The position numbers were made by a program, and so were the translations under genes. Shown in pieces: positions 28,341 to 48,373 of a stretch of 64,000 nucleotides of DNA (the first letter of the stretch is position 1; every line of letters begins with the position of its first letter). The DNA comes from Octopus vulgaris. Lineage: Eukaryota. The stretch lies in the NCBI GenBank assembly GCA_951406725.2, contig OX597821.1, positions 11,842,001 through 11,906,000 on the forward strand. The letters run 5' to 3'. Below the pieces are notes generated by a model that had not been told where the DNA came from, ran no database searches, and saw only the letters and a list, made by a program, of their open reading frames with translations.

Positions 28341-28636
28341 TCTAGTTTCAGCTCACGAGCTGCGGCGATGCTGGGGCACCGCCATTTGAAAGAATAATAT
28401 ATATATATAAGAAATATTGAATTTCTAAATCTCTCGTAGAGACATGTACGGTGGTGGGGCGATAGAATGGTTGTATACTGTCAATCTAACAAGAACGTGA
28501 CAGTAGGGGGTACACCACCGTTGTATAGCCCTAGGAGGCATCGAACGCCTCCTGACAGCTACGACACATTTTTTCCCTGTGTTCTTATATACATCTATGA
28601 AGGGGAGACAAACATCCCCGGCCGTCGGAACTGCAT

Positions 28637-28680
28637 CTAGTGACACCGTGTTTCAGGATCATTGTCCTTCATCGGCCTAG
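28637..28680 (-). ncRNA. Minimal type I hammerhead ribozyme (variant)
   Basis: Reverse complement: CTAGG CCGATGA AGGA CAATGA TCCT GAAAC ACGGT GTC ACTAG. Same CAATGA loop II as the 22.4/22.8-kb hammerheads. Confidence 0.75.
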
Positions 28681-28710
28681 AGTAGCAGACACCGGTCGGA
28701 TGGTGATATT

Positions 28711-30411
28711 ATATCTTTATTATGGGCACGATGGCCCTAATGCAGACGGGACATTACAAGACGGGACGTGGGGTACATAAAGTAAAAAATAAAATATGAA
28801 ATGAAGATGATTTATGTGTAATGAGTTAGATGGAACGGCTTACGAGCCCCCCAACTCGCAGTTCCGTTTAAAATACAATTGTACATTTTACAATTACATA
28901 TATTCCAGTTCAAAATACAATTTTACATTTTACAATCTTACAATTTACAATTTTGCATTTTAACATTACATATATTCCAGTTCTTTTATATTGGACGTTC
29001 GTCCGTCATATCAATTACATCTGGTCTATCATATTTGGCAAATTGTCATACCGTACATATTGCGCTACATAAATAGCATTAAATATCTTTTTCAATTTTG
29101 TGAATGTCTCTTTTTCTATAACTACGCCTTTCACATCGTCACCATACAGTTTTGGGTGCAACTTCACCCTGATCAATCCTTTCCTACCTACAAGTCTGTT
29201 TTCCACTTCTGTGTCTTTGATATACATCACGAATGCCTTCAGGTTTTTTCCTGCAGGTCTTCTTCCCTTTTTACAAGCTTCCAACTGCTCTTTCACTTTT
29301 GTCTCCCATTCTTGGTCAGCCTCTGCCATTGTCTGCTCTCTCGCCTTCTCTTTTACTTCCTTTTCTTTGCACGTTCTCTCTTCTTTTTCTTCTGTTATCT
29401 TGCTTTTGATTTTTTTTCTTTTTTAGAACTTTCGGTGGTGATTCCACCCTTGTTCTCTTCCTATCTTCTGTTCTTTCCTCCTCTGTACTTGCACGTTCTT
29501 CTTCCACATCCATAATTAGCTGCTCCTCCGTTTGCGCCTTTACACTCCTTCGTTACAGCCTCCGGTGCTATCGTTTTCTCCAGCGGGCACACATCCTTCA
29601 TGTCGCCTCTTAATTTACAATTATAGCAGACTGGGAGTCTTCCCTCTACCACGACTCTAAGCCGTGTCTCATCAGGGAAGACCAACTCCTCCGGGATGTT
29701 GTACAGGTCTGGCACGGTTATATGTGCCAGAACCTGCACCGCATATCCCCACCATTTAACTTCTGTTGAATTCTCCACCTTCAACACCTCCACACTTTCC
29801 TTGCAGTTGAAAACTACTGCCGCTAATATCCTCTCCATGTTAAGTTCGGGCGAAATCCTACTAATTCTTATTCTGACTGCCCTCTTTCCGCAGTAACTTG
29901 GTAATAAAGTCCAACTTTCCGATTTCAGAATTCTTGTCGCATTCTTCCTTGCTTCATTTTCATTTTTAAAGTGTACCACCACTGTGGCATATTTCCTTCC
30001 TCTGTTGAAAAAGGTAGGTTCACCCTCAATTCCTTTCAGACATTTCTCTATTTCTTCCGTCTCTGCAACTTCTATTTTTCTTGACGCCACACACCATGTC
30101 CTGTACGTTATCATACGTTTCTCCGCGTTGTTTTCTTCTTCTTCGGACGGTGTGACTCTCACGCAGTCACCCTCCCTCTTCAAACTGTCGAAATATTTTT
30201 CTAAAGTCTTCTTCTCGACTACCACTTCTTCCATTTCTAGTTCACTCGCAACCACGCCTCTGCCTGCTGCTCTCGCGTAAGTCTGGTCTTGCATTTTCAA
30301 AATTTCAAAATAAAATCCACCACGTCCTCCAGCAACGAACTCGAACTCACAACCTCTTCACAATGACGCACTCGAAACAAACACACCAGAATAACGACTC
30401 CAAAAAAAATA
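28711..30411 (-). mobile_element. ORF1-only non-LTR retroelement (HAL1/Tx1-L1-like), 1701 bp, with 17-bp TSD
   Basis: TSD GGTCGGATGGTGATATT (28694-28710) / GGTCGGCTGGTGATATT (30412-30428). T-rich 5' end, a single gag-like ORF, AATAAAGA near the 3' end, and no RT or endonuclease. Confidence 0.82.
29015..30294 (-). pseudogene. L1/Tx1-type ORF1 (gag-like, zinc knuckle), about 425 codons, two frameshifts
   Basis: Three successive frames: 29461-30300, 29316-29513 and 29015-29329. RVVVEGRLPVCYNCKLRGDMKDVCP is a CX2CX4(H>D)X4C knuckle, preceded by an RRM-like region and followed by a charged tail. Confidence 0.8.
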
Positions 30412-30870
30412 GGTCGGCTGGTGATATTTGCCTCGACTTCATAATTGTATATATGTATACTCAGTGAAGTTTATTCACTGATTATCAAAATAAGAAATAT
30501 TGCATTTCTAAATCTCTCGTAGAGACATGTACGGTGGTGGGGCGATAGAATGGTTGTATACTGTCAATCTAACAAGAACGTGACAGTAGGGGGTACACCA
30601 CCGTTGTATAGCCCTAGGAGGCATCGAACGCCTCCTGACAGCTTCGACACATTTTTTCCCTGTGTCCTTATATACATAAAATGTGTCGAAGCTGTCAGGA
30701 GGCGTTCGATGCCTCCTAGGGCTATACAACGGTGGTGTACACCCTACTGTCACGTTCTTGTTAGATTGACAGTATAAAACCATTCTATATATGTGTATAT
30801 ATATATGTGCCAATGCAATTACATAAAGCATAAAAATTATAGATCTCTTAGAAAAGAATACAAAATTTCT

Positions 30871-31837: not shown

Positions 31838-32590
31838 TCGCATGCGCGAAATTAAAAATATAAAATAGCGACAATTTTCTCATCATCTATTGAGAAAATT
31901 GTCGCTATTTTATATTTTTAATTTCGCGCATGCGCATTTTTGCTTTTAAATTCGTCAACTACACAAAATAGGAGGGCCTGTGAGAAAAACACCATTTCGC
32001 AATTCACTCTGCCACAAATTTAGAAACGACATGTTGTACTGCTTGGCATTCGTGCCGGCAGCTCTAATACGAACATTACAAAGTGTTTGAGTGTCAATCG
32101 TGAAGGCTTGCCGTTTCCCCAAAATATGTACCTATAACGATAAAAAAATCAAACATCCAGTCAACATCATGATGCTTAGAGTGATGGCGACGTTAGACCT
32201 TCATTCCTCTTCCCACATGGCCTCAGACTCAACCCGGAGGCCTACATCAAGTTCCTGGAGGAGGTAGTGCTGCCCTGGTTCAAGGCCGTTGATACTGGTA
32301 GGCCCTATGTTTAGCAACAGGGCTCTATTCCATGCCACACACGCAGGAGGACCCACTCATGGCTGTCAGATAAGTTCTGCAACCACATCACTCCTAATAT
32401 CTGGTTACCTAACTTCCTAGAATGCAATCCCTTTGATTATTAGGTGTGGGGCGCAGTTCAGCGAGAAGCAACAAAACTCCTTGTAACAACAACCATCAAC
32501 TGACAGCAAGGGTTATGGCAGCATTCACCAACTTAAACAAAGAGAGCGTTCAGAAAAGTTGCGGGAGATTCCGAAGTCGTTTGGAGGCTT
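31838..32590 (+). mobile_element. maT/DD37D-like transposon relic preceded by a ~45-bp-arm palindrome
   Basis: Remnants PHGLRLNPEAYIKFLEEVVLPW, YV*QQGSIPCH and IWLPNFLECNPFDY*VWG (WPPNSPDCNPLDY type). Palindrome at 31840-31934. Confidence 0.75.
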
Positions 32591-47896: not shown

Positions 47897-48373
47897 GGCG
47901 GCGAGCTGGTAGAAACTTTAGCGCGCCGGGTGAAATGCTTAGCGGTATTTCGTCTGTAAGGTGGCGAGCTGGCAGAAACATTAGCACGCTGGGCGAAATG
48001 CGTGGCCGTATTTCGTCTGCCGCTACGTTCTGAGTTCAAATTCCCCCGAGGTCGACTTTGCCTTTCATCCTTTCGGGGTCGATAAATTAAGTACCGGTTA
48101 CGCACTGGGGTCAATGTAATCGACTTAATATGTTTGTCTGTCCTTGTTTGTCCCCGCTGTGTTTAGCCCCTTGTGGGTAGTAAAGAAATAGGTATTTCGT
48201 CTGTCGTTACGTTCTGAGTTCAAATTCCGCCGTGGTCGACTTTGCCTTTCATCCTTTCGGGGTCGATAAATAAAAGTACCAGTTTCGCACTGGCGATCGA
48301 TGTAATCTACTTAATCCCTTTGTCTGTCCTTGTTTGTCCCCTCTATGTTTAGACCCTTGTGGGCAGTAAAGAA

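Follow-up and report, generated by a model that had tools for sequence, protein, structure and literature searches.

The window, the whole 64-kb stretch of DNA that was analysed, carries a retroelement that encodes only ORF1 and sits at a fixed position in a Penelope-type retrozyme, 12 nt before the retrozyme's hammerhead motif. Tx1-type LINEs that share this site are likely to copy the element in trans, and the element probably relies on the transcription start of the unit. The direct basis for this reading is the recurring site, the empty sites, the interspersed hosts, the conserved ORF1 and the existence of autonomous APE-RT relatives with the same tail design; the steps of the mechanism are those we infer.

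In the window the insert is a 1701-bp element on the minus strand, flanked by direct repeats (28694-28710 and 30412-30428) that are identical at 16 of 17 nt. The preliminary description had taken these as a 17-bp target site duplication bounding the insert; the repeats are present, but the upstream copy is probably encoded in part by the element. As had also been described, the sequence between them (28711-30411) has no RT, a single ORF and an AATAAA signal (28721-28716), and its excision restores a unit of about 365 nt with tandem and inverted parts, namely a 195-nt direct repeat (28400-28594/30483-30677) and a 111-nt inverted arm (30678-30788). The hammerhead does lie close to the target repeat on the same strand, although the spacing to stem I is 12 nt and not the 13 given earlier. 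No second copy of the host unit was found within the window by BLAST, and no hammerhead by motif scan other than that at 28636-28681. The features of the locus are as follows.

28397..28408, no strand: (TA)n microsatellite at the 3′ end of the host unit (from sequence)
28409..28635, minus: remaining host monomer to its fixed 3′ end, including the 53-nt tail (host-unit mapping)
28636..28681, minus: minimal type I hammerhead motif (motif scan, covariation)
28694..28710, minus: downstream target copy, of host genotype (repeat comparison across loci)
28716..28737, minus: 3′ tail, a hairpin with a 4-bp stem followed by AATAAA, likely RT recognition signal (from sequence)
28711..30411, minus: ORF1-only non-LTR element with 5′ UTR, ORF1 and 3′ UTR (matches elsewhere in the genome)
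29015..29422, minus: C-terminal piece of ORF1, out of frame in the window copy (135 aa)
29464..30294, minus: N-terminal piece of ORF1, with two predicted RRM-like domains and one zinc knuckle (277 aa)
30412..30428, minus: upstream copy of the target repeat, the last ~14 nt of which are probably an RNA-encoded head of the element (tracks element subfamily)
30429..30677, minus: upstream partial monomer of the retrozyme-like host unit, holding the presumed promoter (direct repeat with 28400-28594)
30447..30455, minus: TATA-like sequence, ~30 nt before the A at 30425 where transcription presumably begins (ranked first of 9 PWM windows; putative function)
30678..30788, plus: inverted, tail-less host arm, a Penelope-type 5′ inversion (111-nt inverted repeat, 97-98%)

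A perfect 44-bp inverted repeat with an 8-nt loop is also present at 31839-31934 of the window.

The host unit and its insertion site

The host monomer is a short (365 nt), non-coding, tandem repeat with a type I hammerhead motif; non-LTR retrozymes are described as 170-400-nt repeats with type I hammerheads (PMC7229834). With a natural empty monomer as query, 2188 candidates came up at first look, and 40 of them were scored. Mapping of 30 host loci revealed a fixed 3′ end with a one-sided tail, variable 5′ truncation, partial tandems and inverted arms. The inverted arms usually end 53 nt short of the 3′ end of the unit, also in empty units, and most empty units run into (TA)n at their 3′ end, as the window unit does. 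Partial tandems, 5′ inversion, a one-sided tail and a bias to microsatellites are reported hallmarks of Penelope elements (PMC8557442). As the mapped loci show these hallmarks, their structure fits the proposal that animal retrozymes are non-autonomous PLEs derived from PLE pLTRs (bioRxiv 10.64898/2026.07.22.740005). Judged by sequence and structure, the host is a Penelope-type retrozyme unit, with putative self-cleavage. It shares with known non-LTR retrozymes the short type I hammerhead repeats, partial tandems, 5′ inversion and one-sided tail, but its tail is 53 nt long, rather than 30-40 nt, and its hammerhead core carries a fixed U4C, unlike theirs. Two PLE families near filled loci were checked and had no pLTR homologous to the host unit; they have hammerhead-like pLTR motifs of their own. 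A Penelope-like family at L307-L311, with an ORF of 1312 aa and numerous near-identical members, is very young; its pLTR contains a hammerhead-like motif, and its 3′ end falls at either of two positions in (TA)n, some 57 nt from each other.

Each of the 25 close 3′ ends of the element abuts a target repeat. Eighteen are followed by a hammerhead unit, four by another ORF1-only copy and three by the 5′ end of an autonomous LINE (family 2, below); a variant host holds one of these, and a different unit family holds another. An exact-pattern count gave 216 empty sites and 14 filled junctions, with none for reversed controls; these genome counts are lower bounds, and the sample of empty sites is biased to one query. 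Thirteen of the filled junctions hold the ORF1-only family and one a short insert of another kind. Sister subfamilies occupy the equivalent site in other hammerhead-unit families, and the distance from site to hammerhead is nearly constant in three unit families with no BLAST similarity to each other. Among the distant ORF1 relatives, 25 of 40 had unit-like DNA in the locus, and others were in an LTR-like repeat or stacked in front of each other. The earlier proposal that the element is targeted to the retrozyme unit is thus confirmed: the genomic copies were to be compared for unrelated flanks, a sign of chance insertion, and the same target flank recurs instead. At L218:1470-1530 the target holds an insert of another kind, whose end is formed by part of the element's 3′ hairpin in inverted orientation and AATAAAGATAT. 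Some ORF1-only relatives (L320, L332, L335, L026) lie about 30 nt downstream of CCAAT and TATAAAA boxes in the LTR-like repeat.

It had also been suggested that the composite moves as one unit. A unit-ORF1-unit composite would then be mobile, copied by a Penelope-like RT with the hammerhead units serving as pseudo-LTRs, and the window locus does resemble a Penelope insertion in its partial tandem, inversion, tail and (TA)n. Host sequences were compared in a tree of 70 segments (2 of 72 were dropped as too short, and 5 of 49 empty loci gave no segment). Mean distances were 0.058 between filled hosts, 0.051 between filled and empty hosts and 0.045 between empty hosts. The nearest neighbour was empty for 14 of 20 filled segments, which is about the chance value; two of these 20 sites hold a sister subfamily, and one holds a short insert of a different kind. 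Seven arrays, L019 among them, carry an empty site beside a filled one. As filled hosts are interspersed with empty ones and arrays are mixed, insertions are therefore mostly independent events and not copies of a moving composite. Stacked copies belong to different subfamilies, for example with 82% and 89% identity to the window copy; element DNA was found in the inverted arm in none of 27 mapped loci, and most copies are full length with host DNA upstream. Two loci do look otherwise. At L100 a Penelope ORF is fused to a 5′-truncated element and host, and at L067 an inverted host arm is joined to the middle of the element; the nearest neighbours of the window host are the L100 hosts. Because of these fusions and this proximity, co-mobilisation may occasionally occur, but only L100 and L067 resemble it. 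Movement of the composite is very unlikely to explain the window locus, and as the main route it is largely refuted.

The ORF1-only family and its Tx1-type relatives

In the window ORF1 starts at 30294 and is broken into pieces of 277 and 135 aa, the frame being lost near 29539. The C-terminal part is in frame in intact copies (L002, L008, L019, L022, L030). The single zinc-knuckle ORF described earlier therefore stands, as an ORF broken in this copy, but intact relatives are 443-459 aa long and not about 425 aa. The window knuckle reads CX2CX4DX4C, with H in place of D in most relatives. Among the 60 matches listed in a DNA search with the element, about 40 are near full length, with 77-89% identity, and a protein search for ORF1 gave 48-100% identity in its best 150 matches; about 40 close and 40 distant relatives were inspected. 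Copies of the 1.7-kb family stop at the 3′ tail directly after ORF1, so that only ORF1 is encoded.

The deletion test set out in the preliminary description, whether the family has an ORF2 that the window copy has lost, gave the same answer at both levels: no ORF2 was found among the roughly 40 near-full-length close matches, and no intact ORF2 within about 3 kb in any of the 40 distant relatives fetched. The only ORF2 fragment among the latter is at L344, where a 55%-identical ORF1 is fused to the 3′ end of an ORF2. For the N-terminal part of ORF1, dN/dS was 0.08-0.16 in all eight within-family pairs, with dS up to 1.9, and for the C-terminal part it was 0.19-0.52; one of nine pairs was left out, as it compared two other families and was saturated. 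These ratios indicate that ORF1 is under purifying selection. With no intact ORF2 downstream, the element is therefore not a one-off deletion derivative. The broken ORF of the window copy and the L344 fusion would suit a dead remnant of an autonomous Tx1 LINE in which ORF1 has no role, but we give this reading almost no credence in view of the many intact 443-459-aa copies, the selection on ORF1 acting over dS > 1, and the presence of at least three other ORF1-only families in the genome. The ORF1 does align with the ORF1s of autonomous APE-RT families, at only 25-30% identity, which also speaks against such a remnant; by sequence comparison it is homologous to Tx1-type ORF1s. No autonomous element with a nearly identical ORF1 and 5′ UTR was seen among the inspected ones of the best 150 ORF1 matches.

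The ORF1 protein is predicted to bind RNA. Modelled with AlphaFold, an intact relative has a mean pLDDT of 64, rising to about 80-88 in the N-terminal domains, and the model resembles tandem RRM proteins (Foldseek E 1e-4; VIA Z about 8). The predicted order is two RRM-like domains, a single CCHC knuckle, a linker that is disordered and, last, a C-terminal domain. Sequence searches were less informative: the window ORF pieces had no significant Pfam match and an intact copy only a weak zf-CCHC match, a PDB sequence search gave weak zinc-knuckle matches only, leads from the ESM Atlas were limited to CCHC and ZCCHC3-RBD clusters, and a protein search returned a single homologue, from Octopus bimaculoides.

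The earlier comparison with HAL1 is supported as far as coding content goes, there being no ORF2 and a selected ORF1. HAL1 is a non-autonomous non-LTR element derived from mammalian L1 that encodes only ORF1p (PMC5753468). The octopus element likewise encodes ORF1 alone and keeps it by selection, but its ORF1 is of the two-RRM and CCHC type and Tx1-like, its close copies have no poly(A) tail, and its insertion is site-specific. It works like HAL1 but is not classed as HAL1, as its ORF1p is not of the L1 type. ORF1-only elements have thus arisen outside L1 with their protein kept under selection; they provide a natural experiment on the role of ORF1p in cis.

Candidate autonomous partners, LINEs of L1/Tx1 type, were found in two families. 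At L093 and L101, four ORF1-only families stand head to tail before a LINE with ORF1 and APE-RT (family 1), and all elements of these arrays have a similar hairpin-AATAA tail. Family 1 has 86 matches at 97-100% identity among the matches listed, and its target is a repeat that gave 787 exact motif hits. The elements of family 2 measure 5.5 kb and have a 1134-aa ORF2 containing APE, RT and zf-RVT. Pfam identified Exo_endo_phos, RVT_1 and zf-RVT in the autonomous partners, which have both ORF1 and ORF2, as expected of Tx1 elements. The best named match of family 2 was 'Transposon TX1 149 kDa protein' (E 1e-90); human L1 ORF2p matched an autonomous partner with E 2e-62, a value from a different database from the TX1 match. 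The autonomous partners are flanked by 15-20-nt repeats at fixed sites, as in target-specific insertion with target site duplication. Of 20 family 2 loci fetched, ten have a 15-19-nt repeat followed by a hammerhead-type unit (L196 adds one) and three are in U2 arrays; a sub-branch of family 2 is in an 81% variant of the window host in 4 of 12 loci. Autonomous relatives thus hit the equivalent position in three hammerhead-unit families and positions +1 to +14 of U2 snRNA. At L099, two family 2 5′ ends, truncated or interrupted, are in the exact target of the window host, and no intact autonomous copy was found in that exact host variant among exact-pattern matches.

The 3′ end of family 2, TGTAATGTCCC...hairpin...ATAATAAAGA, has a design in common with the window element. 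The proposed autonomous partner sharing the 3′ end was found in part: Tx1-type candidates have the same tail design and targets, but neither autonomous family has the stem sequence of the element's 3′ hairpin. Partners were assigned by tail design and target, not by identity, because of this difference. On these features the ORF1-only element is likely to be inserted in trans by related full-length Tx1-type LINEs.

Head-to-tail arrays with up to four distinct ORF1-only families were observed at L093:1-10000, L101, L091, L096, L098, L104 and L114-L117; some end in an autonomous APE-RT LINE and some exceed 15 kb. A tRNA-like SINE (L119:7100-7500, L120:4647) ends in a GCCCC..GGGYAATAAAG tail, as does autonomous family 1, which suggests on sequence that family 1 is its LINE partner. 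The SINE resembles the octopus OK SINE, and a repeat at 47900-48019 of the window matches its head.

The duplicated target and the presumed transcription start

The two copies of the target repeat behave differently. In all four informative arrays (L002/L007, L008, L010/L020, L012) the downstream repeat was the array's own empty site and the upstream repeat was not; at L013 and L009 the two agree. The form of the upstream repeat is tied to the 5′ UTR type and subfamily of the element, not to the host. About 14 nt of the upstream repeat are therefore probably an RNA-encoded head. Autonomous copies inserted in U2 carry U2 1-14; next to it comes a head left over from a hammerhead-unit target. These sequences are most simply explained by an RNA that begins within the duplicated site and replaces the upstream copy at 5′ joining, in which case the asymmetry of the supposed target site duplication would be a sequence record of that joining. 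An internal promoter would likewise give a fixed head.

In the U2 inserts the presumed RNA start coincides with position +1 of the gene. Family 2 copies at the very 5′ end of U2 snRNA genes (L192:7623-7816, L199:7164-7357) duplicate about -3 to +14. The Keno insertion site lies further inside U2, whereas the octopus site is at +1 to +14. A TATA-like box at -40 to -22 ranked first of nine windows in 9 of 18 targets, about two being expected, in a test with hand-picked, partly related anchors, approximate PWM weights and an AT-rich genome, in which the other nine targets did not rank first. The pLTR of Penelope is reported to contain its start site (PMC8557442). The U2 +1 position and the TATA-like boxes near -30 together suggest that the true target is a transcription start site, and on this sequence evidence the element probably borrows the promoter and start of its host unit. 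Contigs of four runs presumed to be RNA cover parts of host and element; they carry no strand, end or level information and are not counted as evidence here.

A transposition cycle can be proposed on this basis. Pol II would start at the host start site inside the duplicated target, leaving about 14 nt of target at the 5′ end of the RNA. The element's ORF1p, with its two RRM-like domains and knuckle, would package this RNA in cis, and a Tx1-type ORF2p would bind the 3′ hairpin-AATAAA tail, nick a new target and reverse-transcribe. The 5′ head could then anneal to the target and overwrite the upstream repeat copy. As insertion would regenerate the target, elements could stack head to tail.

A broader version, which we offer tentatively and do not favour, is that the Tx1 lineage and its ORF1-only elements target start sites as such, duplicating about -3 to +14 around +1 of unrelated multicopy Pol II promoters (hammerhead retrozymes, U2, LTR-like repeats), and switch targets by means of the old start sequence carried as RNA head. 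If true, this would amount to a promoter-less three-tier chain of parasites (Penelope, retrozyme, Tx1, half-Tx1) with retargetable site choice. A site really defined by transcription start would provide a model for target switching by APE-type LINEs, relevant to tools for site-specific gene insertion.

Several of these features have precedents. Tx1 families are reported to target other repeats (Tx1L in Tx1D, Keno in U2, Tx1-Mar and SINEU in Mariner-N4) and LTR elements (Tx1-8_Crp and Tx1-4_AMi); target-specific Tx1 LINEs form tandem stacks, bring non-autonomous passengers to the target they use themselves, and may rely on the target DNA beside them for transcription (PMC4494074). The octopus families likewise have APE-RT, insert in repeats, stack and carry passengers. 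They differ in that the target is a hammerhead-bearing Penelope-type retrozyme, that the passenger encodes a conserved protein, and that insertion falls on a presumed start site in promoters unrelated to one another. R2 and R1 of 28S rDNA use homology-assisted joining, and co-transcription with the target together with such joining is likewise proposed for the octopus element. R2 is reported to depend on flanking transcription (cited in PMC4494074).

Ribozyme-bearing retrozymes are thereby added to the known targets of site-specific LINEs. We found no report in the literature of Tx1-type or ORF1-only elements targeting retrozymes, and Repbase, Dfam, Bao and Jurka 2010 or supplements may already list the families. 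The O. vulgaris repeat annotation includes L1-Tx1 and Penelope families (PMC13282606), the main text of that article making no mention of ribozyme, HAL1, nested or ORF1. Nested units of this kind will confuse repeat annotation, because they resemble LTR or Penelope elements with a gag-like ORF.

The hammerhead motif

The window hammerhead has the U4C core variant and a stem III of 2-3 bp, and cleavage is predicted between 28642 and 28641, at a distance of 69 nt from the element. Core position 4 is C in all 70 host segments. Stem I has one mismatch private to the window copy, which has an A beside the cleavage site; in 69 of 70 aligned segments this base is C. The hammerhead stem I and the ORF of the window copy are both damaged. 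In 14 related motifs, 97% of 168 cells are paired and 8 of 12 pairs changed on both sides; none of 500 shuffles reached the covariation score, and slid controls paired at 16-56%. This is support for the structure and not proof, because the structure was drawn from the same sequences, which are related. With Rfam no hammerhead scored in the window, in the region or in any of 10 loci, and a further 15 target loci gave no match; by MFE the motif folded no better than shuffles (z about -0.9).

The site might have been selected for the ribozyme. Read-through RNA would then be cut 69 nt past the element, and its defined, target-homologous 3′ end would prime reverse transcription. The near-constant distance to the hammerhead in three dissimilar unit families, the covarying stems and the absence of poly(A) tails from close copies would all fit, yet we judge this explanation unlikely. 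The element has its own AATAAA, stacked copies lie kilobases away from the ribozyme, stem III is short, and U4C is reported to lower hammerhead activity in vitro (PMC3088659). Relatives also thrive in U2, in the LTR-like repeat and in the repeat with 787 hits, where no hammerhead was seen; in the last of these none was found by eye or with Rfam. Because relatives are equally successful in targets with no detected hammerhead, site choice points to the promoter and not to the ribozyme. The hammerhead is probably a bystander, at most a back-up cutter of 3′ ends. R2 frees its 5′ end with an HDV-like ribozyme of its own, whereas in octopus the ribozyme is part of the host and stands on the 3′ side of the element.

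The repeat targeted by family 1 (L247-L256, 787 exact hits of a 30-mer) has a TATA-like box upstream and a B-box-like motif. In a second unit family (L110:5674-5718, L111, L113, L209) the hammerhead core has U3 and A8, which we take to be a compensatory swap of the C3-G8 pair.
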